From Mactra antiquata (Eukaryota): a stretch of 64,000 bases of DNA. Below the pieces are notes generated by a model. The model saw nothing but the letters and a program-made list of their open reading frames with translations. It was not told the DNA's origin and did not search any database. Where the stretch lies: the NCBI GenBank assembly GCA_047288015.1, contig CM103819.1, forward strand, positions 32,689,354 to 32,753,353. The letters are read 5' to 3'. The translations under genes and the position numbers were made by a program. Numbering within the stretch: the first letter of the stretch is position 1; every line of letters begins with the position of its first letter. Positions 1,500 to 56,390 of the stretch are shown here, piece after piece.

Positions 1500-1815
1500 T
1501 TGGATTTAATACTGACACACATTAAGGTTATGTACGGTGGCCAGCTCACGCAACTTTAGCATTTCCTGGACCATTTTCGTTAATCAGTACCACTTACCCT
1601 TCCACAAGGAGCCAATAATTTCTCCCTCTATGGAGGAAAATTGATATTAAATATCAAACTGTAATGGAAGGGTACAACCTGCTCAAGTGGGGATTGAACC
1701 CGGGACCTATGGCTTTATAACCCTGCACTGGGTACAACCTGCTCAATTGGGGATTGAACCCGGGACCTATGGCTTTATAACCCTGCACTCTACCACTGTG
1801 CCAAGGCCAGAGAGC
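1500..1815 (-). mobile_element. SINE family B (..CCTTCCACAAGGAGC..GGGATTGAACCCGGGACC tRNA-like head at the right end) with an internal 58-bp tandem duplication (1674-1732 / 1733-1791)
   Basis: TTGGATTTAATACTGACACACATTAAGGTTATGTACGGTGGCCAGCTCAC..CCTTCCACAAGGAGCC..GGTACAACCTGCTCAAGTGGGGATTGAACCCGGGACCTATGGCTTTATAACCCTGCACTG x2. Track ORFs 1654..1836 and 1687..1944 are spurious. Confidence 0.65.
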
Positions 1816-8168: not shown

Positions 8169-8212
8169 CTACAACAAAATAACAAACATAGGTAGGGCTA
8201 GAAATGCTTCAT

Positions 8213-8520
8213 TTTTATTTCAATTGGGTTTAACACTGTAGCGACACTTTGTATAGGTCATATCATGGCGGTCAGTCAACCTACTCACTTTTTATGGAAA
8301 GGCTTTGATCTCTGGATCTAAGTTGTTAGTCAGTATTAAGCACATAATTTTGTCAGTGACTGACAACTACCCTACATGATACAGAATCAGTGGTAGGATG
8401 GAGAATGGCCGTAGATATTATTTCTTTACCGAGCTCCACGAAAGTATGCCCCACCCAGGAATCAAACCCACGACCCCTTGATCAAAAGGCTTGTGCACTA
8501 CAAACTGAGCTAGCCAGACA
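8213..8520 (-). mobile_element. SINE family A copy
   Basis: Collinear with 14207-14500. Lies between PARP4 exons 20 and 21. Confidence 0.65.
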
Positions 8521-8625
8521 GGATAGAAATGCTTCATTAAATAATGACTATTACATGTAACAATCATGTTGATCAATCTGTTTGATCAATCAGAAGTTTT
8601 TTTGTTTGTTTATGCTTTATTAAGT

Positions 8626-8860
8626 AATTGGATTTAATGCCATTTATCAACACATATTAAGATTATGTATGGCGGCCAGCTCAACCAACTATAGCATTTC
8701 CTGGACCATTTTCTTTAACCAGTACTGCACATCCTTCCACAAGGAGCCAAAAACTTCTCCCTCAACGGACAAAATTCTGGCGACTTTTCAAGGAAGGGTG
8801 TGACCTGTGGTATTGGGGATTTTATCCGGGCTCTACAAATTTGCCACAGCTGCAGCTTAG
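8626..8860 (-). mobile_element. SINE family B copy
   Basis: TTGGATTTAATGCCATTTATCAACACATATTAAGATTATGTATGGCGGCCAGCTCAACC..CCTTCCACAAGGAGCC. Confidence 0.6.
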
Positions 8861-9461: not shown

Positions 9462-9755
9462 GGCAGTTTGTTTTTGTTGGGTTTAATGCTATGTCAACAC
9501 AAATTATTGTCATTTTCACAGAGGCCAGCTCACCTAACCTAGTATTCCTGGACACTTTGTCTATAACCAGTACTCTCCTACCCTTCCACAAGGCTGACAA
9601 TGTCTCCATAAACCATATTAATGGAGGAAATCGACATTACTGTTGAATTTTCATGAGAGGGTACAATCAGTTCAAGTGGATTTGAAATAGCGACCCCTTC
9701 AGGACACTAGATTCGAAATTATATGCTTTACTATGGCGCCATGGACCCGGGACAA
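9462..9755 (-). mobile_element. SINE family B copy, flanked by ~160-bp direct repeats (9303-9467 and 9750-9910)
   Basis: GTTGGGTTTAATGCTATGTCAACAC..GAGGCCAGCTCACCTAACC..CCTTCCACAAGGCTGAC..GGCGCCATGGACCCGGGAC. The flanking repeat AATAATAGAAAATATAA(TAA)AGATTTACTAGTAGTATATAGTCCAGTGTG.GTTTGCAAGTCAG...CTAACAGAAGGCCAAACTAGATACACAC is present on both sides. Confidence 0.65.
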
Positions 9756-13288: not shown

Positions 13289-13402
13289 CTTAGATTTGAT
13301 TCTATGTGTAGGACATTCAATAGATCTAATATCATATGGCATATCAACAGATACTTGTATACTAGTTTCACCTTGCTCCACTTCTACAGTGTCTGTCTCT
13401 TT
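13289..13402 (-). CDS. PARP4: PARP4-like exon 16 (KETDTVEVEQGETSIQVSVDMPYDIRSIECPTHRIKSK)
   Basis: Acceptor AATTTCAG, donor AAG|GTATTT. 38 codons, phase 0/0. Resembles human ..SFSLTMSIEMPYVIEFIFSDTHELKQK. Confidence 0.65.
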
Positions 13403-13429: not shown

Positions 13430-13690
13430 TTAATTTGGATTTAATGCCATTTATCAACACATTTCAATGTTATGTATGGCAACCAGCTCAAATATAGCAT
13501 TTCCTGGACCATTTTCTTCAACCAGTACTGCTCACCCTTCCACAAGGAGCTGACACCTTCGCCCTCTATGTAGGAAAATCGATATTATCAAATAAATTGT
13601 CACGGAAGGGTTTAAACCTGCAGCGACCCATGATCGAACCCGGGCCTCCAGATTTGTAATCCTGGGGTCTACCACTGTGCCACTACAATA
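13430..13690 (-). mobile_element. SINE family B copy
   Basis: TTGGATTTAATGCCATTTATCAACACATTTCAATGTTATGTATGGCAACCAGCTCAAATATAGCATTTCCTGGACC..CCTTCCACAAGGAGCTGAC..CGAACCCGGGCC. Confidence 0.65.
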
Positions 13691-13744: not shown

Positions 13745-14000
13745 TTATATCTACAGAGCTCACAGAGGCCAGCACACCTAGTATAACTTTCCTAGACACT
13801 TGTCTATAACCAGTACTCATCTACCCTTCCATAAGGCTGACAACTTCTCCATAAACCTTATCAATGGAGAAATCAACATTATTGGCAAATTTCTATGGAA
13901 GGGTATAAGCAGCCCACATGGGTTTTGAACCGGCCATCCCTTCAGGACACTAAATTCGAAATCCAACTCATTACCACTGAGCCATGGACATGGGTTTCTG
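13745..14000 (-). mobile_element. SINE family B copy (adjacent, tandem to the previous)
   Basis: CACAGAGGCCAGCACACCTAGT..CCTTCCATAAGGCTGACAACTTCTCCATAAACC..GGTTTTGAACCGGCC. Confidence 0.6.
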
Positions 14001-14206
14001 ACATGTAAACACAACAACTATAATACATACATTCATAGTAATTACAAAGTCACAACAACTTGGACAGTATGTCTGTATTATCTAGAATGTATATGCTAAA
14101 TGATTCCTTATTTATATATCGTGTACAAATAACATGTAACACATGTAAGGTGCATAATTTACTCTTAAGTCTTGTTACACCTAGTTATGTAATATTTTTT
14201 TTAGTT

Positions 14207-14500
14207 GGGTTTAACGCCGTAGCAACACATTGTATAGGTCATATCACGGCGGTCAGTCAACCTACTCACCGTTCCTGGAAAGGCTAAATCTCTGGATTTA
14301 GCTGTTAATCAGTTACTAGGCGCATACTTTCGTCAGTAACTGACAACTGCCCTACATGATTTGGAATCAGTGGTAGGAAGGAGAATGGCCGTAGAAATAA
14401 TTTCATGACCAAGCTCCACAAAAGTATGCCCTGCCCGGGGATCGAACCCACAACTCCTCTATCAGTAGACTTGTGTGCTACTGACTGAGCTAGCCGGGCG
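14207..14500 (-). mobile_element. SINE family A copy
   Basis: Reverse complement of the 19209-19505 unit (..GGGGATCGAACCCACAACTCC..CTGAGCTAGCCGGGCGGG). Confidence 0.7.
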
Positions 14501-14607
14501 GGTAGTTTCTGTAATATGCACTTACCTAAATTCTGTAATGTGCAATATGATTGAATAAAAATTGGCCACCAATTATGAGAATCGATTCCATTCAGACAGC
14601 CACATGT

Positions 14608-14886
14608 TTAAGAATGTAACATTACGTATGGGGTGCCATAGGTTGTGTCATGTGACCTCTGAGATTTTACGATATTTTCTAACTTCCGGGTGCTCCGATT
14701 TGTAATTGACGACACCAGAGTCACTTTAAGCCAATATATCTTCCTATTTTTAGAAACCAAATTTTCCTGCTTGCACCAATCAATCCATTTTTTCCTTTCC
14801 TTTTGATTAACAGGAAATCTAAACAAACTACAAGTCTCCGACCCACCAGTACGATGCGTACAGCCAAAAGCATAACAGTAAACCAT
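14608..14886 (-). CDS. THAP-domain-like ORF ([43 protein letters not shown]...), possibly a P-element/THAP-derived fragment or a small nested gene in a PARP4 intron
   Basis: C-x4-C ... FRFP ... KW motif matches the N-terminal two-thirds of the THAP zinc finger (THAP1: [36 protein letters not shown]). The C-terminal CxxH/SEHF part is absent or degenerate. Flanked by the direct repeat AACTTCCGGGT (14683-14699 and 14927-14943; ETS-like CCGGAAGT on the coding strand ~45 bp 5' of the ATG). Region is CpG-enriched. Confidence 0.45.
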
Positions 14887-15050
14887 TATACAACTGAGCG
14901 TTCGCGTTTACTTTCACTTTCTATTTTCAACTTCCGGGTACATCAGTAAACGAGACTTAAATACCCTACTATAGTATTATTCATATTTACATCATCAGAT
15001 AAATGAACATATCTGAAATATATTTATTTATTTTTTTATAAATAAGTTAC

Positions 15051-15212
15051 CTGTGTTTCAAGTTTAAGAGAGTCTTTTTTCCATGGTGCCACACTACCGG
15101 GTAATCTAAAACTAATTAATTCACCTTCCACAAGTAGCTCAGCAACGTAAGTTATCTTAATAAGTACAGTAGCACCTGGTGGTAGGTTACCTACACTAAC
15201 TGTGAACACATC
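15051..15212 (-). CDS. PARP4: PARP4-like exon 15, VIT domain (DVFTVSVGNLPPGATVLIKITYVAELLVEGELISFRLPGSVAPWKKDSLKLETQ)
   Basis: Acceptor CCTTACAG, donor CAG|GTAACT. 54 codons. Matches human DVFTVSVGNLPPKAKVLIKITYITEL...PATVAPWQQD. Confidence 0.85.
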
Positions 15213-15304
15213 CTGTAAGGTGTTAGTTGTAAATAACAAACATCTTGATACATGTAGTACATTTAGATAGAAAAAATGATAGCACAAATCTATTATGCTT
15301 TATG

Positions 15305-15560
15305 GCATTTTTCAGTCATATCACATTGTCCTTGGTAAGGTTTAGGTCTCTAGACCAATGATTTTAGCCAGTACTAAGCACATACCTTCACCAGAGGCTA
15401 ACAACTACCCCACTTGATACAGCAGTAGGGGCAGAATGATTGTAGAAAATATTTCATAAAACTCCACAAATGTATGAAAGTTCTGTCAGGCAATTGAATC
15501 TGCAACCCCTGGATCAGTAGGCAGGCACTTCTAACCGAGTAAGCTGGGAGGAGTGGAAAA
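15305..15560 (-). mobile_element. SINE family A copy (diverged)
   Basis: TCAGTCATATCACATTGTCC..TAGGTCTCTAGACC..ACTAAGCACATACCTTCACCAG.. Confidence 0.5.
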
Positions 15561-15819
15561 ACTAATGTATTCATCATGATGTATTGTTGACACTTCACCA
15601 CAAAAAAAACTCAAAATGGGCAAAGTCGTGTGACTTACAGAATACAAACATCAAATACATTGATAAATTAACTCAACAGACCAATAGAATGAGAGGAAAC
15701 AGGAGTCAGAGGTTACATAAAAATTTCAAATAAAAATAATAGAAATGTTTTAGGTCAAACTATTGCAATTTTACCATCATGGAACTGAAATTTTGACTAA
15801 TTTTACCATCAATATAAAA

Positions 15820-15960
15820 TTCATTCATTAAAGGTCAAATATAATTTGATTTTCAATTTTGAATAAATACCTTCATTTGATAGAGCTTCAAAACAGGATT
15901 GTAATGGTGCCATTCTTATTAAAATCAGAAAATAAATAGCAAAATAATGACTGATTTATG
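15820..15960. repeat. Dispersed ~140-bp repeat (second copy at 28868-29000), both in PARP4 introns
   Basis: AAGGTCAA.TATAATTTGAT.TTT..AATTTTGAATAAATAC.TTC.TTGATAGA.CTTCAAAACAG.A.TGTAATG.TGCCATTCTTAT.AAA...GAAAATAAATAGC.AA.ATAA.TGA. Confidence 0.5.
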
Positions 15961-16427
15961 AAAATGAATATTTAAGAGTTCAAATATCATGACATTTGTT
16001 GCATGCGTTTTAAAATTCAAGGTAAAATGTGAGTCTGTCTTCATTCCCTTGGTACAATGAATATGGAAAATGCTTAAATAAGCTATATCTTTGCCATTTT
16101 AATCGGATTTTAATTTTGTTTTCACTAAATCGATTTTTTAAACAGCTTTGGCTCCCAAATAAGTGTATTTTATTACCTTTAATTCATCGCTCACTGATTT
16201 TTTGTTGAGGAATTGCCATTTTCAAATTTGATGGCCAGTTGCGGTTCATTAAATCATGTAATAGCAATATCGAAAATATTTACCTACATGTACATCTTAA
16301 AACTTTCAAAATATTGTTCGTGCACTTGCTAGTTGCTACAATTGCCAAATAATTAGAAAAGGTAATGACAATGTAAACTTGGAAGCAATATTTTCAAGTT
16401 AATGAAGTGGGCCGTCAAACAACTTAC

Positions 16428-16652
16428 CGGAGTTTCTTCATCTTGATCCATCAGATAGGCACCATGACCTTCACTTATGGCTTTCTTATATTCTTTATGT
16501 GCAGTTTCTTTCTCTTTAACTTCTCCTATGATATGTTTACCATTAATAAAAGCTTCAAATCCACATACAACTGCTAGATCACTTAATGGAAATACATACT
16601 TAGCTTCTAGATGTGTATCACTTAAATTCTCATACTCTTGTAAAACTATAAC
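16428..16652 (-). CDS. PARP4: PARP4-like exon 14, VIT domain (VIVLQEYENLSDTHLEAKYVFPLSDLAVVCGFEAFINGKHIIGEVKEKETAHKEYKKAISEGHGAYLMDQDEETP)
   Basis: Acceptor TTATGCAG, donor CCG|GTAAGT. 75 codons. Near-identical blocks to human VIVFQTY...EAKYIFPLDDKAAVCGFEAFINGKHIVGEIKEKEEAQQEY...QGHGAYLMSQD. Confidence 0.85.
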
Positions 16653-17520
16653 CTGCATAAACAAAAGTAAGATTGATTGATATTGATATTGTATTGTTAT
16701 TTTATATATATATATGTTTGTATTACTATTCTGTATATAGTTCTCATGTATTACTATTATGTGTAATTTGAGAAATAAAAGTATTGTTCTGTTCTGTTCT
16801 GATATTAGGCATGGTATCTGTTAATACACATTTACTTAAAGGCACTCGTTCACAGATTTTGTTAAATTTTTTTGATATTTTAATATTACCTGCCCGTGTT
16901 TGTAATTTTACTAAGAAAATGAATGCTTAATATTGTAAGACAAATTGACCTATAATTTGTGAGAAATATAAGATAAATGTCACAAAAATTGCCTAAAATA
17001 ATCTATACCGTGACATACGGGGTAGGTTTTTATTAATAAAATCACCATATTTTACAGCTGTATGCCAATTTGCAGTAAAATTGTCATTATCAGAACGCTG
17101 CTTTTACTGTTTCCAAAATGTTTCTTTACAAATTTGACAGTTTTAGAAAAGTTGTTATTTAAGTTGAAATCTGTGAACGAGTAGCTTTAAGCTTAATTTT
17201 GAAACAAGAAGAGCAGTCAATGGTCTATTTAATGGGATCTAACTCATGACGTAAAGTTGAGAAGCCAGTAATGTAGAGCCAATAAATGTGCAGGCTATAC
17301 TGTCTCTACACTGGCAAAAGCTTTAAAGTTTAACCTTAAGCATGGTAAGTGTTAAAATGTATCTTTTAAAATAGTGTTATAATTAATATTTATCATTGCA
17401 GTCACACCTTTAAATACTTACATAAGACAAATGCTTATATCTGCACTATATCTATGGCCAGTTAGCAAATATAAGCATTAAACAGGAATGAATAACATTG
17501 ATACCAATATATTAACTAAC

Positions 17521-17651
17521 CTCTGAAGCAAGATCCATCAGTTTTGCTCGAATATGGACACACTTAAGATTCACAGGTGCATCATCCTTGGACACTAAAC
17601 CTGCTTTAACCTTTGACATTGGATCAACAATATCTTTGACATCTGTTAAAC
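17521..17651 (-). CDS. PARP4: PARP4-like exon 13, VIT domain start (LTDVKDIVDPMSKVKAGLVSKDDAPVNLKCVHIRAKLMDLASE)
   Basis: Acceptor TTTCAG, donor GAG|GTTAGT. Resembles human VPLEDVHIKGRIIDTVAQ. Phase 1 in, 0 out. Confidence 0.65.
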
Positions 17652-18984
17652 CTGAAATATAACAAAATCTGGTGTATTTGTTCCAAACAAGAATCTGCTC
17701 ACTAACTTAGATATCAAAGCATTATCATTAAAGTATTTGGAGACTTAGTAATGTTTAATTTTATGTCAAAGAGTACACATAGAAGTTGGTAGACCTTTCA
17801 CATATTGAAAGTGGTCAAGCCGTTACGACACTGGACTGGTAATATTTGGATAGCCATCTCTGCATTGGTTCCAATCCCATCTAAAACAAACCCTGTTGTT
17901 TCCTTGTGCAAGAAAACTTATCCTAATTGCTTAATACTGGGGGACCAGAAAGCAAAATTGAGAGTGATTATTGTAATTGTAAAGACTTGTATCACAGTCA
18001 AGCTTAACTAAGTGAGTATAAGCTAAATATAAACTTTAAACTTTAGATAGCATTCTAAAATGTATAGCAAAACCATTTTATAGCACTGTTAATTTCTAAC
18101 ATTCACACAGCCATGTAATACATGGTCAAACTGCCCTTAGCACTACTAATATGATGCACTTTACATCAACAAATTATACAATGCCAAAATATGTCTAAGC
18201 TTTAGAATTTCAAATTATTGTTACAAACAGTCATGCTGGAGAGTATAATGTTGGTACTTTGTTCATCAGTAAATATCAACAGAGTCTAAGGCAAGAATTC
18301 CTAAGAGGTTTAAGAGAGTCAATAATTGAGCTAGATCATTTGGGCTCCCTTGGTGATTATCATAGATTAATCAACCTCAGGAAGAGAATGTTTCTAAAGT
18401 AGTCCTATAACAACTGAGCATGCGCTCAATGTCTTTTGGGTATAACTCAATATGAAGTGCTAAAAACTGAACAAAAATAACTAAAAGTACACTTTTTTCC
18501 TGCATACTTCATTGTTTTTGACTCCCCATAAGTATGAGTTAAAACATATGGAACTGACTGAAAAACAGAATTTAGCTTGCCTTTTCAATGAACATTGGTT
18601 CAGAAGAATAGTGATATTATCAATTGTTTCTCAGATTACCAACTTATTTCATTTCAACGGAGTGACAATAAGACTCTTTAGCGTGTTTTGATGTAATATT
18701 TTCTCTTTCTAAAGGTAAATTATTTGTGAAAAGAATGGAACTTTTTTACTCCAACATGTAAATGACCCATTCGAATGGCTCAACAACTTACAACAGATAT
18801 GTTGTGGTGTATTCCTTCAACTGCATCGGCGCCTGATTTTGCAATAGCATAGTGTTAGCGGAGAAGGCAGAGGTGTTCTGATTTGTGCCAAAGACCTGAC
18901 ACAATTGCTAGCCTCTTTGCACAACCCAACAGACTCAATGTATAAAATATTAACACAAAATAAAATGAATACAAATATAATTAC

Positions 18985-19138
18985 TAAGAGGTCCATTATT
19001 ATTATCATCAGTAAGTTCCATATTCTCACATAAAGTGAGAGGTATATTTATAGATGTTAATGTATCATCATCTGTAGTAAATTCTATAAGATATTTTATC
19101 CTTTGTTGTCTAGTACTGTATACTACAAACTCATCATC
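18985..19138 (-). CDS. PARP4: PARP4-like exon 12 (DDEFVVYSTRQQRIKYLIEFTTDDDTLTSINIPLTLCENMELTDDNNNGPL)
   Basis: Acceptor TTATATAG, donor A|GTAATT (weaker). Resembles human DDEFVVYKTNQVKMKYIIKFSMPGDQIKDF. Phase 0 in, 1 out. Confidence 0.6.
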
Positions 19139-19208
19139 CTATATAATATATATATAGATAAAACAAAGTTAGTCATAAGAAAACAATAACATAAGAAACA
19201 TACTAAAT

Positions 19209-19505
19209 AGGTACCCACCTGGCTAGCTCAGTCAGTAGCGCACAAGTTTACTGATTGAGGGGTCGTGGGTTCGATCCCCGGGCAAGGCATACTTTTGTGA
19301 AGCTTTATCATGAAATAATTTCTACATCCATTCTCCCTCCTACAACTGATTCTAAATCATGTAGGGCAGTTGTCAGTCACTGACGGAAGTAAGCACCTAA
19401 TAACTGGTTAACAGCTAAATCCAGAGATTTAGCCTTTCCAGGAACGGTGAGTAGGTTGACTGACCGCCGTGATATGACCTATACAATGTGTTGCTATGGT
19501 GTTTC
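19209..19505 (+). mobile_element. SINE family A (tRNA-Lys-like head GGCTAGCTCAGTCAGTAGCGCAC..GGTTCGATCCCCGGG; tail ..GTGTTGCTATGGTGTT)
   Basis: tRNA-like A/B-box region followed by a ~200-bp body. Other copies at 2326-2590(-), 4470-4700(-, partial), 8213-8520(-), 11326-11400(+, 3' fragment with poly-A), 14207-14500(-), 15305-15560(-), 56108-56390(+). Confidence 0.7.
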
Positions 19506-19703
19506 AGTTCATTGGTTTATTGGATCATTTCATGAAGTTCTTCTGCAGCATAGATACAAATCAACAAACAAATGCATCACCACATACTCCCTATCAGAAC
19601 ATTAGGGCTCTGACATCAAGCTTAAAATATCAAGCATTGTCTTGAAGTTACATAATCTCATGCCATTATAACATTAACACAGTCCAGAATACGTTTGCAA
19701 ATA

Positions 19704-20125
19704 CAGAAATCTTGCAAACTTACTTTTTTCATTTTTGATCCGATTTCTTTCAATTTTTTAATAAATATAGATCTACATATGGGCATTACACCAGTAAATT
19801 TTCAGCCACATATCTTAACTGGAAGTATGAAAAGAAATGAGTCAAAGTCAAAATTCCCATGGGAATTGGCATTTTCCCATTGGAAAATTCCATCCCCATG
19901 GGAATTTCGTGGGACTATCATGGGAATTCTCTCCCATTCTCAGAAATGGGAGAAAATACCCATTTTTATAAAGAAACTGAAACTAACTTTTAATTTCTTT
20001 GTAAAAAATGGGTATTTTCTCCCATTTCTGTTAAGTGTTATGCCCAAATGTAGATCTATATTTATTGAAAATTTGAAAGAAATCGGATCAAAAATGTAAA
20101 AAGTAAGTTTGCAAGATTTCTGGAT
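19704..20125. mobile_element. Foldback/MITE-like element with ~75-bp terminal inverted repeats and an internal cluster of TTCCCATGGGAA-type palindromes, in a PARP4 intron
   Basis: 19705-19780 is the reverse complement of 20045-20125 (AGAAATCTTGCAAACTTACTTTTT.CATTTTTGATCCGATTTCTTTCAA..TTT.AATAAATATAGATCTACAT). The track ORF 19695..20099 spans it and is spurious. Confidence 0.65.
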
Positions 20126-20410
20126 TTTGTGTTCATTATATTTTTGATTTTTGTATTTTTTCTACACACTTTTTCTGTCATAGACTTAATATCATTATTC
20201 TGCAAGAACATTTCCATATTGATTATAAGGCATACTGTACAAACACCAGGCTGATGGTGAAAACGACATAACATTAGAAAACATAGTTCTCACACATAGC
20301 AAAAAATTTATATTTCAAAATCAAATCTCATCAATTTAACTAATATTTTTTATATATAATGTGAAATATACTCAATAGAACTCGGCAAAAATTTTAATCA
20401 TAGTCCATAC

Positions 20411-20594
20411 CTTGAAAGCAGACTTAGTGTGCTCTGTTGTTTTTACACCATGTACACTATCATAGCCTTCTGGTGGTGAAGTCAAGTCATAATCTCTTTC
20501 ATACATTTCTTTCTGTCTACCAAGAGCAACATCACATACTAACATAAATCTAGAACCCTTTGTCTTACTGGGTGTGGAATATTGTATACTTGTA
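20411..20594 (-). CDS. PARP4: PARP4-like exon 11, catalytic domain (STSIQYSTPSKTKGSRFMLVCDVALGRQKEMYERDYDLTSPPEGYDSVHGVKTTEHTKSAFK)
   Basis: Acceptor ATAACAG, donor AAG|GTATGG. Resembles human TSIKYSHPGETDGTRLLLICDVALGKCMDLHEKDFSLTEAPPGYDSVHGV. Confidence 0.75.
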
Positions 20595-21134
20595 CTGTTA
20601 TAGAAAAACAACAAACAAACAAAATTTATACACAGGTGATACATGTAAAATAAATTTCACAACAGGGCTGTAAAAATCTATGTGCCCTGCAGGATTATTT
20701 ATCCCTTAGATGTAAGTCCATAATATGATAATGCATGTATGGACTAGGAAGAAAGACTTGTAAACATTAAAAATATTTCAAAATATTTATCATGATTCTC
20801 TTATTTAAGTTTTCTATAGTAAATTGTGATCTAACAATGGTTTTCCTTTAACTTTTTATGAGTATCTTCACATAAACATCAATAAATTTGGAAATGGATA
20901 AAACGTAAGTAGGACAAGAAGTCCCATGGACAAAAAGTACTATGCTATTTTTTGCCAGGCAGACCAAAAAGTAATATTTGGTTTCGACAGAGCGGATGAA
21001 AAGTACATGTACCACACTTGTTTTGCCTTGAAACAAACACTACAACAAATTCATTGAAAAAATATAATAAAATATATTGATACATGATACATATATAAAT
21101 TAAGTTCTTTATACATGTATGTAAGTATACATAC

Positions 21135-21233
21135 CTAGCAGAGTTAGCAAAATAAATACCAGAACCCAACATGCCAGGATCTGATCTTATACCACCATGA
21201 TCATCAACGACAACTTTAGGCATTAATAAACCA
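21135..21233 (-). CDS. PARP4: PARP4-like exon 10, catalytic domain (GLLMPKVVVDDHGGIRSDPGMLGSGIYFANSA)
   Basis: Acceptor ATTTCAG, donor AG|GTATGT. Resembles human GLLLPKVVEDRGVQRTDVGNLGSGIYFSDS. Confidence 0.75.
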
Positions 21234-22018
21234 CTGAAATTATAACAAGGTTCAAGTCATTAAATCAACCAGTGTTTCATAGATCTCAAATAGGACTTTT
21301 CCAACTTTGCCCCCCCCCCCCAATTCAAAATGGTCACCTCTAGAATTGATTATACTGTTTTCAGCAGGATTGAGTGAATAAATATAAATAGGCATTTTAA
21401 GTTTGTCCAAAGGAAAAGTATACTAAGATGACCACTAAAGAACACATCCAATGTTTCTGTATCAAACAAAATATTGATCATTTAAACAAAATAAGTGCAA
21501 TGTCAATAAATAGCCCATTTGTCATTGTTTCAAATTCCATTTCGTGTACTTATTATGTACAGCAGTATCATCTGTGTTCTTACATGGATATTATACGCCA
21601 CCTTTGAGCAAAGTTTGGGGACATTATGGCACTGCATTCAGTAGCACCTTCTCACAAGTTTTACCAAGACATAAATTAGAAAATGTTTAATACATGTACA
21701 TATCAATCTCTGAAACCATGATGCCTAGAGGTATCATGTTTGACATAGTATAATATGAAAACATTGTTTCTTTTCAGTGTCTTTAACGATCTGTCTAGGA
21801 CCATCATGGCCATCCTAATTTCAAATTTTTGTTTAATACATAAAATATCATATGATATATATCAAATATCGATCATTCTGAATCAATACAAATATTGTAT
21901 CAATCAATCTGATTGATATAGAGCCCAAATGAGCACCAAAGTCAATAAATTACAACACCAAATCTTGATATCATAATCAAATACATATATATATTTATGC
22001 ATGATAATAAATGCCTAC

Positions 22019-22153
22019 CGTGACAGAATTCCAACAATATTGTTCACTTTTGAAGCATGAAAGAGTTCTTGTGAAGGTATATCATGTGTAAAGTTAACAT
22101 TTTCTAAAGGACGACTCACAGCATAAATAGATTGTACAGTCATTGATTCATTT
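22019..22153 (-). CDS. PARP4: PARP4-like exon 9, PARP catalytic domain start (NESMTVQSIYAVSRPLENVNFTHDIPSQELFHASKVNNIVGILSR)
   Basis: Acceptor TTTTTTAG, donor CG|GTAGGC. Resembles human RPLLHGSPVQNIVGILCRG. Phase 2 in, 2 out. Confidence 0.7.
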
Positions 22154-22219
22154 CTAAAAAAGACAAACAGTGAAAATCATATTCAACAATATCTGTTTAT
22201 AACAACATGTATACATTAC

Positions 22220-22512
22220 ATTAGGAGTAGCGGTACAGTGATTGGACTGCCACTTAGGGATCAAGAGATCCAGGGCTCAAACCCCCCCTGGGGCACAGCT
22301 ATTTACCTTGAGCAAAAAATTTGTCTACTATCGCTTCACTTCACTCAGGTGAAATGAAGTACCTAGGAGGGGGGTATAATTCTGTTGCGCCATTGTTGGT
22401 TGCACAATAAATGGAGTAAAAGACTCTCAAGGGAGATAGATAGATACTAGTAGCCTGGTGATCAGGGGTGATAGCTGTAAAGTTAGTGAGGGTGCAACAG
22501 CATGAAACCAAG
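22220..22512 (+). mobile_element. SINE family C (tRNA-like head GGAGTAGCGGTACAGTGATTGGAC..; body ..ATTTACCTTGAGCAAAAAATTTG..CTTCACTCAGG)
   Basis: A second, 5'-truncated copy in the opposite orientation lies at 52150-52300 (..GGAGCAGTAGTCCAGTGGTAGAACGC..GGTTCGAATCTCACGGGGAACACTGCTTATTTCCTTGAGCAAGAAATTT..). Confidence 0.5.
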
Positions 22513-22794
22513 ACTACAAAATGCAATAACTTCACTTTAAAAATCACTATATATCATAATTATTATAATCATTAACATTTACATATATTCATTATTACCA
22601 TATGACATCGCAATAAATTGTAACATAACTGTGTACATTTAGATAATATTATCAAAATCCCAATGATGTTTCTCTGCTATGATTCTATTGACCATTTACA
22701 TTGCAGTCATGCAAAAATATAAGAGAAATTTGATGTCATCCATTTTTATACAAACTGTAGCTGCAATACAGAGCGTCACACTTACCAGTTTTTC

Positions 22795-23085
22795 TTTACT
22801 TTTATTTTTGTTGGGTTTAACGCCATGTCAACACAAATTATGGTCATTTGACGGTCAGCTCACCTAATCTAGCTTTCCTGGACCTTTGTCTATGACCAGT
22901 ACTCAACTACCCTTCCACAAGACCAAAAACTTCCCCATATACCTTATTAATGGAGGAGAATCACATTATTGCCAAATTTTCATGGAAGGGTATAACCAGC
23001 CCGATTGAGGCTCGAACACTTCGGGACACTATTTTCGAAATCTTGCGCATAGCCTACTGCACCATGGACCCCAGTAAATGAAATT
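22795..23085 (-). mobile_element. SINE family B copy
   Basis: TTGTTGGGTTTAACGCCATGTCAACACAAATTATGGTCATTTGACGGTCAGCTCACCTAATC..CCTTCCACAAGACC..GGCTCGAACACTTCGGGAC. Confidence 0.6.
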
Positions 23086-23569
23086 CAATAAAGATTTCAA
23101 TGGATAACAGATATAAAATGCTGAGCAGGATAATTATTTGATTCTACATGGTTGTTGCAGTATTTAAAAACAAGAGCCGGTCGAACCGGGTGATGCTCCC
23201 TGAAAAAAATTTTAGACACAGAGAAGCAGTTTGACAATAAAGTATTTACCATATTCAGCATAAAGATATAATGTAAAGTGTAAAAATAAAAACGGGCAAT
23301 AACTACAAAATAAGGCAAGGCAGAGTTACAGTTCTTATGCACTGCACTTCCACTTGATGAGATCTATCTACCTACAAGTTTCATGTTGGTACCTCTTGCA
23401 GTTTCAGAGTTATGTCCCAGACAAGAAAATGCTAGGGACGGACATGAGGACATATGGACATACAGACACATGGACATGCGGACTGACAAAGCGTCGACTA
23501 TATACTCTCCCTTCAGGGAGCAAAAACAAACAACTAGTAAGAGAATCAATGAAAGAAAAGAGCACATAC

Positions 23570-23730
23570 CCAGTTAAAGAAGACATCAAGTGTGTTTCAA
23601 CTCTCTGAAATTCCTCACAAGATTTAGGTAAGTTTTCTACCAGACATCTTAAAGCTTTATATTTACTTTGTGTACTTGATGTCATGGACCAATCTGTAGC
23701 TTCACTCACTGATATCATGTCCTTTACAAG
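23570..23730 (-). CDS. PARP4: PARP4-like exon 8, regulatory domain (LVKDMISVSEATDWSMTSSTQSKYKALRCLVENLPKSCEEFQRVETHLMSSLT)
   Basis: Acceptor TTTTATAG, donor G|GTATGT. Resembles human SLAKYRALRCKIEHVEQNTEEFLRVRKEV. 161 nt, phase 0 in, 2 out. Confidence 0.7.
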
Positions 23731-24948
23731 CTATAAAATACAAAATATACATTATATCAGAGGTATAGATCCTTACATTTTTCTAGGAGGATGGGGTCGG
23801 ACATAATTTTCATTTTGAATCTATTTGTTAACATCTGTTACATCTACACATACATGCATTCAAAAGGGCATTTTTTTCAACATATTTCACAAGCATGTTA
23901 AAAAATATCAGTTGTAGCTGCATACAGCTAGTAAACTCAGGTAGTCATGAATTTTTATCATTTACTCATAGTAATTACCTACAGTACATTGTATTTCTAA
24001 GACTGAAAATTAATACATTTTTTTTAGATTCTAGTCTTTGCTTATTTGTTACAACAAAATTTAATGTAAAATATATCTGCTAATGAAATACGATGAATCA
24101 TTTTGTCTGGATATAAATACTTAAGCATGAGAAAGGCCCAATAGTTTCACTTCTTTATTGTTTGTATTGAAATAGTATTGTTTAATAATATCATTATTTT
24201 CATTTGCTTCACCTGTACAACTTGTGAAATTTATATATAATTATGTACTTTGATAACAACCATTTTGCTTTCAATAATTTGTTTGTTAAAATGTGCTTCA
24301 AAGAATTGATATTCAGTGGGTCCTATCATAACAATCTCACAACTGAACATGTTTTGCTTTTGATTTTTTTTTTTTAGTGGGAATTCTTGTGAAAAATCAG
24401 TGTAACACTTTCTCATTTGATTTTGGATTTTATTTTATAATCTGGATTCTCTAATATTAGCAGATATTTTTTTTGTCATGCAAAATAATATTTTCCATTA
24501 TAATCTGGTACAAAATACTAGACTTATTATATTCCTTATGCTAGAGACATTTATTATTTTATTCTTAGTAAGGGCATAGACAAATTATCCACATCGAAAA
24601 GATAGAACACTTTGTTCAGGCAATGCATGGACTTTCTCTGCTCAAGTAATTTTTTGTCTAAGCATATTAATAAAACATTACGAGCTAAAAATCATTTTTA
24701 AACAAAGTAATATTGAAGACAGCAATTCATAAGCCTAATTTAATAGATTTTCAAAGGTATAATGTTGTTTGTTTTGGTGAGACAAAAAGGATTTCTGCTA
24801 ATATTAGAGAATCCAGAATATAAAATTCAAAATCAAATAAGAAAGCGTTATATTATGTTATATTACATATATATGTATACTCAGAGTGTCTGACTTGTCT
24901 GCACATAAGGCATTCTTATGAAGCAGTCAGACCCTTATAAAAACTCAC

Positions 24949-25128
24949 CTGACATGTATCCATCTTTCTAGATATCCATGCTTTAAATCTATCATTATCT
25001 GTCACAGAATCCATGATATTATGTGGTATGTTCTTATAGAATTCTGATACTAGGTTAGGTATTGAGTCCATGTCTTTATTATCTATATTAGATTTTATCT
25101 GCTTTAAAACTGCCTCCGCTTTCTCTAT
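24949..25128 (-). CDS. PARP4: PARP4-like exon 7, PARP alpha-helical regulatory domain (IEKAEAVLKQIKS...LVSEFYKNIPHNIMDS...RKMDTCQ)
   Basis: Acceptor CATTATAG, donor CAG|GTGAGT. 60 codons. Resembles human VSKAEGILLLVKAALK...MTEFYRLIPHKG...KKADLCQ. Confidence 0.7.
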
Positions 25129-25149
25129 CTATAATGTAAGAAAATGTGT

Positions 25150-25540
25150 CAACTCTTTTCTTAATTAGATTTAACGGTGTTTTCAACACATATTATAATA
25201 GGTCAGTTCACAGAGGCCAGCTCACCTACCCAGCTTTCCTGAACTGTTTTCTAACACAAGTACTCATTTACCCTTCCACAAGGCCGAGAACACATATTAT
25301 AATAGGTCAGTTCACAGAGGCCAGCTCACCTACCCAGCTTTCCTGAACTGTTTTCTAACACAAGTACTCATTCACTCTTCCACAAGGCAGACAACTTCTA
25401 TGTATACCTTATAAATAGAGGAATATCAACAATTAAGTCAAATTTTCATGGAAGAGTATAACCAGCTGCAGCAGGATTCGAACCCAGGACCTTACGATCC
25501 ATAGTGGAGTGCTTTATCTACTCGGCCACAACTGTGGCTA
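25150..25540 (-). mobile_element. SINE family B copy with an internal ~105-bp tandem duplication (25187-25291 / 25292-25396)
   Basis: ACATATTATAATAGGTCAGTTCACAGAGGCCAGCTCACCTACCCAGCTTTCCTGAACTGTTTTCTAACACAAGTACTCATT.ACCCTTCCACAAGGC repeated twice, then ..GGATTCGAACCCAGGACC. Track ORF 25146..25346 is spurious. Confidence 0.65.
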
Positions 25541-26458
25541 TGTTATATTAGTAAAATCAGTCCTGAAAATGAAGTATAATAAAATGATACATGACTTAGA
25601 GTATAACATCAGCATTGACCAGCTGATGTTGAGTATACTAAGAGCTACTATGCCAATGTCCATGGTGACATAATTTATACAAACTAAAAGTAACAATACT
25701 TTCAACATCTCAAACTAACCTGGGTTTTCACCTATTTACAACCCTTCATTACAGATATAAAATTAATGTATTTCAATAAGTTTATTCTGTATGGCAATTT
25801 TAATGCACTTTCACATTCTGTTGTGAAGTGTCTTTTTATTAAAACGATTGAAGACATTACATGCTACTTGTTATCGCTTAAGTGACAAGACATGAATGTT
25901 AAGAAGGCTGATACAGTTATTAAGAAGCTGTTTCAGCTTGTATTGGATTTAGATTAATTCAAGAATACTTAAGTCAATAAAATAGTTTACATTCTCATCT
26001 TAGAGTGCATAAAGCTATTTACTGATTATGCCAAATGTATTTCAGAATGTTTAAAACTTTATTAATCTCACATAAGTTCCAAGTAAGCACAGCATTAAAA
26101 AATTTAATCTCAGTCAGCAATTGAATACACAGGGTTGCTCATGATATCAGAATAAATCTCTAAATAAAAGTACCACTGTTAACCAACTGTATACCCTCCA
26201 TCATCTATATACAGATTGCTGCTTACCAAATCAGGGTATATCTACATTCAATTACGCTGCTCGCAAAAAATTGTGTAGTAAACTTAAAGTACAAAGATCG
26301 TACTAAACACATTTAAGGTTTCAATTCAGGCATTCGGGAATGATTCTTATCATCATACAAATTTTGCCAAGAATACAACATCAGACAAAAATTTATACAC
26401 TACAAGTGTATTCCTCAATATACCAATATATATGATGTAATATCTAAGAATGTCTTAC

Positions 26459-26596
26459 TTGTTCAAGTTTTATATTAGTTATCGGTACACTAATAATAGT
26501 CTCTAATTCACCAAGAGCTTCATACCATATATGTTGTACAAGTTGACTGACTTCATCTGATAGATTACAACTCTCTATACCTAGTTCTCCTGTCAT
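26459..26596 (-). CDS. PARP4: PARP4-like exon 6 (MTGELGIESCNLSDEVSQLVQHIWYEALGELETIISVPITNIKLEQ)
   Basis: Acceptor TTATTACAG, donor CAA|GTAAGA. Resembles human LSQEVSDLVEMIWAEALGHLEHMLLKPVNRISLNDV. Phase 0/0. Confidence 0.65.
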
Positions 26597-27140
26597 CTGT
26601 AATAACAGTGAAAATAAACAAAATGTTTATCATTGTAGCAGAGCCATTTCAATGGAGTGAAAATGAGACTCTCAAGCATGTTTTCATGGGATCTTTTTCT
26701 CTTTGGCTAAATTATGTGTGAAAAGAATGCAATATTTTTACTCCTATGTGTAAATCACCCGTTTAAAAGCCTAACAACTCACAACAAATACACTGTTGTG
26801 TATCTTTCAAACCGTATCTGAGTCTGATTCAGTGATAGCCTAACATTAAGCATTAGAAGAAGGCAGAAAAGTTCCAATTGTGATTACCCTTCTCCATGTA
26901 TAACATAGTTATCACTCATCCACTTCCACTAAAAGCTGACTGAACGAAATAAAAAACAATTTCAAACAAAAGTTAGAAAGGTAAAATTTCTTGGAACTTT
27001 CAGACCTCAAAAAGTGACTTAGACCAAAAAATGACTTTGACAAAAATGACTTAGACCACAAAAAGTGACTCAGTCCACAAAAAGTGACTTAGACCATAAA
27101 AATTGACTAAGGTACTGTAGTATTAAAGAACTTAATTTAC

Positions 27141-32262: not shown

Positions 32263-33674
32263 CTTGAATGATCTAAAACAAAAATAAGTGGTTATCATAA
32301 TTTTATAGCTTCAATAACAAAATTAAATATTTGTCACTATTTATGTTTTAAACATAGCCCTACCTAAGTTCACATGGCAAAACAAACTATAATTGTTCAA
32401 TTGCACTGCAAACAAACTAATGCAGTATGTACACCAAACGTGCTAGTCACGCCTTTCTGCATATACATGTATAAAATTAGTTCGAGGAACGGCTGACATT
32501 TGCACTGTTCAACATTTTGACAAACTGGTACTATGACAAAACCTCTGACAACCCTAAATTCACCCATAACTCACCTCATTGATTCCATGGTAAAGAAACT
32601 TCGTACTAATAGCTGTATTCTGGTGGACCAGGAAGAGGGCTTAAGAATGATTGATGATGATCTAATGAAGTAAAATGAACGACAATCGTCATAAATCGTA
32701 TTTTATAAGTTACCTGTCAAATTAAATTTTCACAAGTTCTTCACTTTGTCACTCCAGAAAATTGCATCTAATGGTAAAAGTGGCAGGCAAAGAATATGAC
32801 TAATACACATAAATATCTTAAATGAGTGTTACTAAAATTATAAATGACAAAAACAACCTTCTTCCGTAATGTAAACAGTAAACAAGTAAAAACGGTTTTG
32901 GTTAAAATACAGTTTTCCGTACTCACAATGCGGAAAATACCGAATGACAACCTTTAGCTAAACCGAACAAGCGCCAGTTTGACGTTGACTGGGGTGAGGC
33001 AATTGTTAATTATTGCTATCCCAATTGACTCAATTATTCGGCAACGCTGAATATTGTTACACGATCATATGCAGCGTAAGATTATTTTCTTATTTTGCAT
33101 GCTCAATACGGAAAGCAGGCTTGCAAATATGCGATAAGTCAATGCAATAAAGCATAATCATGCAGTGGTTGGTATTGATTGGTATCAAAGATGTCCTAAT
33201 TCCTATTATTATTTGAAATTATTTATTTTGTTTATTAATTTCTGTACCCCACCCACTCCAACTGCGTTGTCAAATGTTATTTGCCTAAGTCTGTGTAAAA
33301 TATTTCACCCTTTCCTGAATATATACACGTATGGAAAAACATCCAGAACATGGTGTGAAATTTCAAGTGAAATGATTGGGGTCGGGACATGTGATCCCCT
33401 GGAAAAGTGACCCCGGGACGACTGATCCCATAAGCAGGGACAACTGATCCCATAGACAACTGATCCTGTAATATATATTTTCAGTTATTAAAACAACATT
33501 TTAATATTAAATGAAAAAAAATTAAACGTATGGATCGAGATACAGTTTGGAAGATTTTAATGAATTAAAAATGAATTTTTACAAAATTTCACAAACTTGA
33601 TTATGTACATAGTAGTCGGCTTTATGTTGACAGGGGAATTTTAACAATGACATGCGAGTGCCATAATACATGTA

Positions 33675-36600: not shown

Positions 36601-36948
36601 GTACGATTATTATTGATATAAAACTCAATAACCACAGACCTGGAAATATATCAAATTTAATTGATAGCCATGAAATAATTAACTATGATCTTACTTGTTT
36701 ATAAATCTAGCTATGTCTGAGTATTTGACGCAAACACGGTTGATTTATCTCGTACACACGATACACGATAGAAAATACGTAATCACAATATCTCGGACCA
36801 TCTTTTTAAGGTGAAATTTCACGATGAACGATACACGATGCACGATTCAAATACACGGTACGAACGATACACACACGTTGTGAATGATACACGCACGATG
36901 CACGCACGATACACGCAAATTTCGGTAACTTGCACGATCCGAGTACTG
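33675..36948. mobile_element. Non-autonomous Tc1/mariner-like DNA transposon (3274 bp). 22-bp perfect TIRs CAGTACTCGGATCGTGCAAGTT, flanked by TA on both sides, subterminal CGATACACG direct repeats; no transposase ORF
   Basis: Left end TA|CAGTACTCGGATCGTGCAAGTT at 33675. Right end AACTTGCACGATCCGAGTACTG|TA ending at 36948. More than 10 copies of CGATACACG/CGTGTATCG within ~250 bp of each end. Largest internal ORF is 68 aa. Confidence 0.75.
34111..35960. repeat. Nested 20-bp inverted-repeat pair (GATGACGTAGATCCTACCGT / ACGGTAGGATCTACGTCATC) bounding 1.85 kb inside the Tc1-like element. Contains a G19 homopolymer (35599-35617), palindromes and TATA/CCAAT/GC-box motifs
   Basis: Exact reverse complements at 34111-34130 and 35941-35960. 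GGTCACGTGACC palindrome at 35961-35972. TGACGTCA at ~36381. GGGCGG/TATAAAAG/CCAATCAG at ~34955-34995. CTATATAAACC repeated at ~34810 and ~35158. Confidence 0.6.
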
Positions 36949-44283: not shown

Positions 44284-44936
44284 GTAAGTAATACGTTCTT
44301 TTATTACCATGATCATTGTATCATTTCATTGTATACTTGGTTTATGAGGTCAGGACACTGATGGCTCTGGGACATCCAGACCCCATCTAAGGAGAGTGTG
44401 TTTGTTTCTGATTGGTCATATAAAGTAGTTAGTGAACCCTGCATGTTGAGTGACACTTACAGGCCCCAAAGAGTTTACTGTGTTGTCTCTTGAAATTTAG
44501 CCCAAAAAATGCGAAAATGAAAGAAAAAATATCATAGCCAGTTAGAACTTTCTAAGATGAAGTTCATGATTGGTAACAAACTTACACGGTGCAATGAATG
44601 TTTTGTCTGTATATGAACAAATGAGAGTATTTATTCAAGTTAGTATACTGTTCATGTTCATAGTTTTTTTTTCTCTGAAAAAGAATGGGTTTGTATGGTT
44701 TGATTACTTCTTTATGGCTTAATTGGTATATAAAATGTTTCAATGAAAATGTTGAAGTATTTTTTACTGTGGTTTAATGATTATAGTAATGTTTCCATTT
44801 TTTAATATGTTCAAATTTTGTAGCATGCTTGGTGTTGAGGGTGTCTGGCAAAATCCTAGATGTGTTCAATTTTAGAGCACAAACTTACCTAATGAAAAAT
44901 TTTGGTATAGAAATTAACATTAGAATATTTTGACAG

Positions 44937-45152: not shown

Positions 45153-45388
45153 GTATGTATGACTTGAACTTGTTCTTTATGTGTACTTAATACTTTTGAA
45201 AAATGATAGGATTTTACTATTGTAATATATTTGATATACTTATTATATATACACCCTGGTTACGAAGTAAGCAGTACAAGTTTGCACATCCTTTTTCTTA
45301 GCATGTTTAGTTATGCGTGTGAAAATGGCATTGTTCTGCCTTCAAGTTAAATAGATCAACCATGTGTATTATCTTTTTTCTCTTTCAG

Positions 45389-46547: not shown

Positions 46548-46740
46548 GTGGGCAATTTATTTCATTTCTTTATTAGATCCATTATTGTTCATTAGAAAAA
46601 AATTCTTTTATCTGGCCTGTTCCAAATCTTTACCCGACATTTTCATGTCTGTCTTTTCTTTTAATAAGAGCTTTCTAAAACTGAAATTGCTCATTACAGA
46701 TGTGATATTTGTGAATCTAGATTTAAAAGCTTAAATTCTG

Positions 46741-56107: not shown

Positions 56108-56390
56108 GTTGTCCGCCAGGTTAACTCAGTCGGTAGCGTGTCCAACTGCTAATCCAGAGATTTTAGGTACGATTCCCGGAGGGGGCCAACCTACCTTCGT
56201 GGAATTTGGTCATGGAGTACATATACTTTCCACAGTCATTCTCTCTCCTACCTCTGTATCAAGTAGGGCAGTTGTCGGCTACTGGCGATGGTATGTGCTC
56301 AGTACTGGTGAAAAGCTTAGATCTAGAGATCTAAACCGCTCCAGGGACAGTCAGTAGGTCGGGTGACCGTCGTGACATGACTTAAAATTT
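56108..56390 (+). mobile_element. SINE family A copy
   Basis: GTTAACTCAGTCGGTAGCGTGTCC..GGTACGATTCCCGGAGGGGGCC head plus the shared body. Track ORF 56100..56357 is spurious. Confidence 0.65.

Follow-up and report, generated by a model that had tools for sequence, protein, structure and literature searches.

A half THAP finger in a PARP4-like intron of Mactra antiquata as the probable 5' end of an ISL2EU-type DNA transposon

What is an open reading frame (ORF) that begins like a THAP zinc finger doing inside an intron of a PARP4-like gene? The ORF lies in a 64-kb window of Mactra antiquata DNA (the whole stretch analysed here, to which all positions refer), and an earlier note on that window had read it as a possibly degenerate THAP domain, bracketed as a unit by a direct repeat, that might be the relic of a P-like transposable element. 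Our comparison with homologous loci leads to a mobile element of another kind. With a probability of roughly 0.8, the minus-strand segment from about 14970 to 14771 represents the 5' end of a cut-and-paste DNA transposon of the ISL2EU type that lies in the PARP4-like intron, which would make it ordinary mobile-element debris and no new zinc-finger gene. The features that enter this reading are collected in Table 1, and below we consider in turn the ORF, its family, the boundary of the presumed element, the repeat, and the host intron.

Table 1. Positions of the features at and around the half-THAP ORF in the window (an empty strand cell means that no strand was given; a slash after AT marks the boundary of the element).
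Feature	Position	Strand	Evidence or remark
Upstream host exon, PARP4-like, end of VIT domain	15051..15212	-	Putative transposon end ~80 bp into the next intron
AT dinucleotide just outside the putative transposon 5' end	14971..14972	-	AT precedes AGG in 6/6 loci: window, L001, L003, L005, L006, L009
Putative transposon 5' terminal sequence AGTAGGGTATTTAAGTCTCGTTTACT, collinear with exon 1	14945..14970	-	nhmmer, blastn, fuzzy match
Conserved subterminal/promoter-like block CGTTTAC TTTCACTTTC .. AACTTCCGGGTACATCAG	14903..14949	+	Inverted relative to exon 1; nhmmer E=8.8e-10
Short predicted 5' untranslated leader, between block and ATG	14887..14902	-	Position only; CGAACG/CGTTCG hexamer in common with Saccostrea L005
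Exon-1 homologue, N-terminal half of THAP finger (C4, C9, FRFP, W34)	14771..14886	-	Pfam THAP; 59-71% amino acid identity to bivalve P0123, P0125, P0128, P0129, P0001
Site of the phase-2 splice donor conserved in the family	14769..14770	-	GC here against GT in the family; window AA/GCAGGA; aligned with L001/L003
Putative read-through tail of the ORF, codons 40-92 and stop	14608..14768	-	Without homologue
Second motif copy TATTTTCTAACTTCCGGGT	14673..14691	+	18/19 match to 14922-14939
Possible degenerate opposite terminus AT/AGGTTGTGT	14638..14648	+	Spacing to the second ACTTCCGG 42 nt; 40-41 nt at genuine 5' ends
SINE copy of tRNA origin, lying downstream of the stub	14192..14504		Self-blast matches at 91% identity to 19212-19503, and to several further copies
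Downstream host exon, PARP4-like VIT region, phase 0	13289..13402	-	

The ORF occupies 14886..14608 of the minus strand and has 92 codons. A HMMER comparison with the Pfam THAP profile (PF05485), proposed in the earlier note as the check on its THAP-like character, confirmed that assignment, scoring 30.1 bits (E=8.7e-7) against a cut-off of 23.9. The match spans ORF residues 4-48 and covers only positions 1-47 of the 87 in the profile, that is, the N-terminal half, within which the first ligand pair C4-x4-C9, the FRFP at residues 22-25 and W34 are all present. The tail of the ORF has neither a C-x2-H pair nor an AVPTIF-like box. The note had rightly observed that the C-terminal CxxH is not evident, since neither the ORF nor any of the six frames of the window contains it, and had suggested a search for a downstream exon that supplies it; none came to light in the 64-kb window, whether by a six-frame regular expression (C..H[FL] followed by a P-x-[ILV]-F box), by tblastn with five homologous exon-2 peptides or by tblastx with whole homologous loci. 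On established structural grounds, such a half module, without two of the four zinc ligands, should be unable by itself to fold or to bind zinc or DNA.

An explanation for the missing half is found in the gene structure of the homologues. These were sought with a word-indexed search, which yielded two Logan proteins, and with an exhaustive HMMER search of 1.84 billion representative proteins, which yielded 26 matches; the named matches are from the bivalves Saccostrea cucullata, Crassostrea gigas, Ylistrum balloti and Dreissena polymorpha. All 26 align to ORF residues 1-44 only (the first 39-44), except for a single weak match (E=7.6e-4) that extends to residue 60. The tail is otherwise without relatives among these 1.84 billion representatives, and it has no DNA similarity to the homologues' introns. 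In L001, L005, L009 and the Dreissena gene, an intron cuts the THAP domain directly after W-I-x-R-C-(R/K), and the spliced models read ..WI(D/E)RC(R/K)/RADRE..DR(L/I)CSCHF..GK.ENGPTIF, where the slash before RADRE marks the intron. This intron is in phase 2, exon 1 stopping two bases into the R/K codon (L001, L005, L006 and L009), and exon 2, which lies 0.2-0.7 kb downstream of exon 1 in the homologous loci, supplies both the C-x2-H (CSCHF) and the (G)PTIF box. The homologues' donors read CG/GTAGGT, AG/GTGAGT, AA/GTGAGG and AG/GTTTGT. Half of the finger is thus missing because the family encodes the C-x2-H on a separate exon 2, an exon absent from the window, and degeneration of the THAP domain, which had been put forward as the cause, does not account for it. 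Judged by these alignments, the ORF represents the first exon of a gene family of bivalves followed by read-through, and its tail would be read-through of former intron or of host DNA.

The later exons of the family identify what kind of gene this is. They encode a linker, a coiled coil and, in one large exon, HTH and DDE domains; the large exon scores 125 bits for DDE_Tnp_4 in Saccostrea L005 and 124 bits in L009 (a Tara Oceans contig), and includes HTH_Tnp_4. A mealybug relative has THAP, HTH_Tnp_4 and DDE_Tnp_4 in a single protein. The combination of THAP, HTH and DDE is found in L005, L009 and P0144, and the window has the THAP exon 1 only. A second multi-exon gene follows downstream in L005 on the opposite strand. 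With its exons joined by hand, this ORF2 scores 41.8 bits for YqaJ (cut-off 22) and 28.4 bits for SWIM, scores that belong to the joined exons, as a single YqaJ-like ORF alone has no Pfam match. In L003, an ORF that lies next to an inverted terminus and is read in the direction away from it is homologous to the first exon of this second gene. The window does not contain this YqaJ/SWIM gene, and neither a DDE exon nor a clear 3' end was detected anywhere in its 64 kb.

ISL2EU elements, a group of the PHIS (PIF/Harbinger-ISL2EU-Spy) superfamily known from oysters, are defined by a transposase with THAP, HTH and DDE domains together with a YqaJ ORF and target-site duplications of AT (PMC4482050; PMC4122938), and the PIF-Harbinger content of bivalves has been treated separately (PMC10294476). 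We assign the family to ISL2EU and not to the P element because a THAP-HTH-DDE transposase, a YqaJ ORF and an AT fit this published definition. The likeness to the group, for example to the Repbase families that Bao & Jurka (2013, as cited in PMC4122938) described from Crassostrea gigas, is a likeness by definition: the full-length relatives of the window exon have an N-terminal THAP, HTH_Tnp_4, DDE_Tnp_4, a YqaJ ORF and an AT at the terminus. The window itself differs in that nothing but the terminal ~200 bp, exon 1 included, is present and in the inversion of its subterminal block, and the Saccostrea ORF2 has in addition a SWIM finger, which is not mentioned in PMC4482050 or PMC4122938.

We put close to nil the chance that the segment is instead left over from a P element or THAP9-like gene, or derives from a canonical THAP gene of the host. 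Such an origin would agree with the THAP HMM match, as PF05485 is also the DNA-binding domain family of human THAP9, host THAP1-11 and the P element transposase. However, every full-length relative is of the DDE_Tnp_4/HTH_Tnp_4 type and lacks a P-element transposase domain, whereas the P element and THAP9 have an RNase-H-like P transposase; host THAP genes have a complete C2CH module, and the closest named proteins, labelled 'THAP domain-containing protein 2-like', are truncated transposase models whose DDE exon was called as a separate gene. The earlier suggestion of a P-like relic therefore appears to hold as far as a transposon relic is concerned, but not as to its being P-like, given relatives with HTH_Tnp_4, DDE_Tnp_4 and a SWIM/YqaJ second gene. 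The other two options of the earlier note, a domesticated THAP gene fragment and a cryptic alternative exon, are conceivable but unsupported, with GC at the family's donor position.

Further evidence for a mobile element comes from the 5' boundary. Six loci (the window, L001, L003, L005, L006 and L009) have in common a boundary AT/AGGG..TGTAAGTCTCG and a ~60-bp block containing ACTTCCGGG, and their upstream flanks are unrelated. Written out, the pattern is AT/AGGG(T/C).(T/C)GTAAGTCTCGTTT(A/G)C TTTCACTTTCG .... ACTTCCGGG(T)AC, then 20-70 nt to the ATG. The comparison of L001 with L003 illustrates how abrupt the boundary is, with 93.7% identity to its right and unrelated sequence on its left, which is also indirect evidence of mobility. 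In the window, a profile built from five homologous 5' ends finds the terminus at 14968-14945 on the minus strand (nhmmer, E=0.011), the Dreissena 5' end is 92% identical to the same stretch (blastn), and a fuzzy match has 2 mismatches in 21. An inverted copy of the terminus, 17 nt long, lies directly against the 5' end in L003/L004, and in L003 the two ends form a 17-nt palindrome; no such copy was found in L005, L006 or the window. As far as can be judged from the loci compared, the shared boundary, the unrelated flanks and the abutting inverted copy are the signs of a transposon end. The AT just outside it is consistent with the AT target-site duplication of ISL2EU (TSD = AT, PMC4482050), and could also be explained as part of a TATA-like element sequence; on the 3' side, an AT is readable only at the putative end discussed below, at 14638-14639. 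A 13-mer, ATGATGTAAATAT, common to the upstream flanks of the window and L001 was dismissed as chance (score 26, shuffle maximum 30).

Between the terminus and the ATG, the window departs from its relatives in one respect. The block aligns plus/plus with L001, L003, L005, L006 and L009 (blastn, 81-88%), and exon 1 aligns plus/minus, which means that a 45-bp segment of the block is inverted relative to exon 1, unlike in 5/5 homologues. Inverted CGTTTAC/GTAAACG sequences stand on its flanks and point to a micro-inversion. Within the block are the upstream copy of the ETS-like 11-mer of the direct repeat (14929-14939) and an IRF-like ACTTTCACTTTC (14910-14921). The sequence ACTTCCGG, with its ETS-like core CCGGAAGT, occurs once in the 5' block of each of the five homologous loci and twice in the window, and the upstream occurrence has the opposite orientation here to that in the homologues. 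As a consequence of the putative micro-inversion, the motif reads CCGGAAGT on the coding strand and the two copies are direct, not inverted. The ~60-bp block must be under functional constraint, because it is conserved from Dreissena to oysters while the synonymous sites of the adjacent exon are saturated; its role may be that of a terminal repeat, a transposase-binding site and/or a portable ETS/IRF-like promoter.

The direct repeat itself is best described apart from what it might mean. The 11-mer AACTTCCGGGT does occur in two copies, as had been reported, although the positions given for them (14683-99 and 14927-43) were a few bases off: the exact matches are at 14681-14691 and 14929-14939, and there are no others in the window. 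On the coding strand, the repeat extends to 18/19 nt, ACCCGGAAGTT(A)GAAAATA, and its local-alignment score of 31 exceeds anything obtained in 300 shuffles (mean 17.8, sd 2.3, maximum 28). The repeat is therefore short but real and non-random. Its upstream copy ends 42 bp before the ATG, which upholds the earlier placing of an ETS-like site ~45 bp upstream of the start codon; the core is present in the homologues as well, in the opposite orientation. The downstream copy falls within the non-homologous tail of the ORF, so that the pair brackets the THAP-homologous part and not the whole ORF. With the upstream copy belonging to the family-conserved 5' block, the notion of a repeat that brackets the ORF as a unit has to be given up. 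From the comparison of loci, we take the upstream 11-mer to be the transposon's own conserved ACTTCCGGG motif, which could equally be a transposase-binding subterminal repeat or a candidate ETS/GABP site.

Several other sources of the repeat were considered and rejected. A tandem or segmental duplication does not agree with a local alignment that stops at 18/19 nt; a target-site duplication of a retroposed unit does not agree with an upstream copy that is element sequence conserved in five other loci, nor with the lack of a poly(A); and the downstream copy is not the head of a tRNA-SINE (family D4), as its identity is only 76% across 21 nt and the SINE alignments do not extend into 14505-15323.

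The downstream copy may be a degenerate second terminus, a reading that does not explain it fully. As a sub-variant of the ISL2EU reading, the stub could then be a complete, tiny element, that is, an internally deleted non-autonomous ISL2EU of ~331 bp (14970-14640) with both termini and AT/AT flanks, in which the downstream 11-mer would be the subterminal motif of the other end. We hold this to be possible, with somewhat poorer than even odds. Abortive gap repair is a common source of internally deleted derivatives and could have produced such an element. Apart from the non-random repeat, the second copy is the third-best nhmmer match of the 5'-end profile (14676-14698 plus, E=0.25), and the candidate AT/AGGTTGTGT both resembles the genuine Dreissena terminus AT/AGGGTGTGT and has nearly the same spacing from its motif (Table 1). 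The similarity beyond the 18-mer is not significant, however, either by that E-value or in a local-alignment test of AT/AGGTTGTGT, where 92/1000 shuffles reach the score. Furthermore, AT/AGGTTGTGT has no match to the 3' arm of L003 or to the 5' end of the stub itself, the inverted 5' block leaves the two motif copies in direct and not in inverted orientation, and the homologues have no second ACTTCCGG near exon 1. A search downstream of exon 1 for a 3' terminal inverted repeat was likewise negative, both with the reverse-complemented window terminus and with the L003 3' arm.

The host of the insertion is a PARP4-like gene on the minus strand, with the exons for PARP_reg, the PARP catalytic domain, VIT and vWA in collinear order between 26554 and 2690. 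The ORF is on the strand of this gene and within one of its introns, as the earlier note had it; the intron is 1.65 kb long and separates the two exons of Table 1, both from the VIT region. It holds three SINE copies, and by self-blast the stub sits between tRNA-SINE copies, of which the one at 14192..14504 may have displaced or replaced further transposon sequence. Rfam and ARAGORN gave no matches. In two PARP4 relatives, L007 and L008, the orthologous intron has no THAP exon (the flanking exon is only ~77-79% identical, too divergent for an empty site to be aligned base for base), and the distance from exon to exon is ~0.9 kb in L007 against 1.65 kb in the window. Best identities in the protein search were at most 71% for the THAP exon and at most 94% for a PARP4 exon. 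We favour an insertion over an old nested gene because the stub is unique in the window, lies between tRNA-SINEs, and is missing from the shorter intron of L007 and L008.

These observations lend themselves to the following scenario. An ISL2EU-type element would have inserted in sense orientation ~80 bp into the PARP4-like intron, and the stub would retain its terminal sequence, the ~45-bp subterminal block (the presumed transposase promoter/leader), the ATG and the first coding exon. What the window lacks, from exon 2 and the coiled coil through HTH_Tnp_4 and the DDE_Tnp_4 exon to the second gene with SWIM/YqaJ, would have been lost, and the family's splice donor would have changed from GT to GC. 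The stub would be a dead copy, truncated or internally deleted, of an element that carries its own promoter and from which the CpG richness of the segment would be inherited.

That CpG richness had been likened to a small promoter. The CpG observed/expected ratio is 1.24 for 14770-14970 but 0.31 across the gene body of PARP4 (15300-27000) and 0.55 over the window as a whole. With a G+C content of only 39%, the segment thereby ranks within the top 8.5% of all 200-bp windows. The enrichment is thus genuine, yet there is no classical CpG island; the CpGs are kept at the family's own level. Exon 1 is likewise free of decay, with ATG, both cysteines, FRFP and W intact, and the promoter-like block is well preserved. 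Relative to the homologues, exon 1 has a pN of 0.13-0.19 and a pS of 0.74-1.0 (saturated); pN among the homologues themselves is 0.10-0.23, and the branch of the window exon is no longer than theirs. Taken at face value, these figures suggest either a young copy or one still constrained. Such preservation would fit a recently immobilised copy of a transposase lineage once under selection, and a present function is not implied.

The same purifying-selection signature, which is strong in exon 1, would be expected if this were the first exon of an intact nested gene, either a THAP gene or one derived from a THAP transposase, with its exon 2 more than 14.7 kb downstream across a GC-AG intron. We think this very unlikely. 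GC-AG introns do exist in animals, at a frequency of ~1%, and the Dreissena family member, which spans 58 kb, has long introns. But a transcript of this kind must traverse the PARP4 exons that follow on this strand, of which there are at least 12, the AA/GCAGGA at the donor position bears little resemblance to the strong consensus on which GC donors usually depend, and first introns in the homologous transposase genes measure 0.2-0.7 kb.

A use by the host gene is another way to account for the preservation. The stub may have been co-opted as an internal sense promoter and alternative first exon of PARP4, with transcripts that start at the ETS-like/IRF-like block. A donor TTG/GTTTCT after codon 43 (phase 0) would be joined to the phase-0 acceptor at 13402, giving an in-frame, N-terminally truncated PARP4 without the PARP catalytic domain. 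Several features would accommodate this route: the stub is on the host strand, its ATG and ORF are intact, its promoter block is preserved and its CpGs are retained, and the junction ..KQENL/KETDTVEV.. is in frame; in Dreissena, moreover, exon 1 of the same family is annotated as spliced to non-THAP exons, which yields a half-THAP isoform. Nevertheless, we judge the co-option improbable, as the required donor GTTTCT is poor, the family donor position is a GC from which the reading frame is out of frame with PARP4 and stops after 6 codons, the protein collections searched hold no transcript or protein with this exon from the same or a close species, and the insert is not conserved in L007 and L008. 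A more specific version, in which a dead ISL2EU end gives PARP4 a working ETS/IRF-type promoter together with an in-frame 43-codon half-THAP leader, and thereby a vault-associated VIT(part)-vWA isoform that lacks the catalytic domain, is a longer shot still. If such a PARP4 isoform is real, the preserved ORF, promoter block and CpGs would reflect selection at the level of the host, and not youth.

Under the preferred reading of a dead ISL2EU end, the practical implication is for annotation: a THAP-passing ORF in this PARP4 intron is to be masked as a transposon fragment and not annotated as a gene or as a PARP4 exon. Since THAP is always split by an intron in this bivalve ISL2EU lineage, solo first exons can be expected to recur as 'half THAP' matches in genome scans. 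Two relatives show what the stub can be compared with. The Saccostrea cucullata protein XP_062601681.1, a 'THAP domain-containing protein 2-like' (L005, GCA_032062105.1), is 71% identical in amino acids over exon 1 and has the same 5' block and the same intron position; it differs from the window in that exons 2-5 and ORF2 follow, the block is in canonical orientation and the donor is GT. Dreissena polymorpha LOC127852234 (XP_052242080/81) has the same THAP exon 1 (67% identity), the 5' block and the ACTTCCGGG motif, and its isoform X2 has only half a finger, as the window ORF would have. In contrast to the window, which has no evident downstream partner exon, it is annotated as a 58-kb gene that adds ~770 residues and lacks a DDE domain. 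By its conservation next to saturated synonymous sites, the ~60-bp terminal block (TGTAAGTCTCG .. CTTTCACTTTC .. ACTTCCGGG) is marked as a constrained cis element, and blocks of this kind may be open to co-option by host genes, for which the gene model of Dreissena LOC127852234 is suggestive.

The subterminal block of the window's transposon end, the conserved segment next to the terminus, does not lie as it does in related elements: at 14903-14949, versus 14945-14970, it forms a 45-bp micro-inversion relative to all five homologous ends (5/5). A 7-nt inverted repeat (CGTTTAC/GTAAACG) flanks the inverted segment, and we raise as a question whether template switching may have been the mechanism, though the micro-inversion may instead be an artefact of the assembly.

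A different arrangement is seen in L003, one of the homologous loci, and in L004, which shares its palindrome. At L003 2119-2161, which corresponds to L004 1185-1227, two transposon ends stand head to head with 1 base between them and form a 17-nt palindrome without mismatch, GAGACTTACAGAGCCTA-A-TAGGCTCTGTAAGTCTC; from it the THAP gene reads rightwards and the first exon of a SWIM/YqaJ gene leftwards. These ends could represent tandem elements or a junction with a bidirectional promoter.

In the ISL2EU-like element of Saccostrea cucullata (L005), ORF2 encodes a YqaJ domain and a SWIM zinc finger; the NCBI annotation divides the transposase into two models, a 'THAP domain-containing protein 2-like' gene and a separate DDE gene. 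The same two THAP exons (1-2), together with the conserved 5' block, stand at the head of Dreissena polymorpha LOC127852234, a 58-kb gene; it encodes about 770 residues beyond the THAP exons, without a DDE domain, and its isoform X2 skips exon 2, leaving only half a THAP finger. This locus is possibly an ISL2EU THAP gene that has been domesticated.

Feature coordinates in the window and in homologous loci
Feature	Position	Strand	Remark
tRNA-derived SINE copies	window 14192-14504, 13757-13994, 13435-13690, 15324-15476		
tRNA-derived SINE copies, further	window 1517-1803, 2333-2511, 8211-8766, 9477-9746, 19212-19503, 22801-23069, 25205-25466, 56113-56384, 59314-59542		
381-codon ORF	window 60257-61402	+	CpG-rich
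456-codon ORF	window 45364-46734	+	very high Arg/Ser/Lys/Glu/Asp, RS-domain-like
ORF2 of ISL2EU-like element	L005 4780-8746	-	S. cucullata JAVVLV010005318.1
LOC127852234	L006 9878-10117 and whole locus		D. polymorpha CM035926.1

Elsewhere in the window, the strongest CpG islands (33500-34100 and 36550-36850; observed/expected about 2, 18-24 CpG per 300 bp) lie upstream of the mapped exons of the PARP4-like gene, contain no long ORFs and may be its promoter region or regions. Neither the 381-codon nor the 456-codon ORF has a Pfam match; the latter is probably a single large exon that belongs to a neighbouring gene, transcribed from the strand opposite PARP4. With the former go two more CCGGAAGT/ACTTCCGG sites, at 61153 and 61375. 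At 44452-44523 (-), GGGCCTGTAAGTGTC and CTTTCATTTTCGCATT match the transposon 5'-end profile very weakly and non-collinearly (nhmmer, E ~12), probably by chance.

The PARP4 introns of the window are also populated by many copies of a tRNA-derived SINE family (67-91% identity), none of them called by ARAGORN or Rfam; three share the intron that holds the THAP stub.
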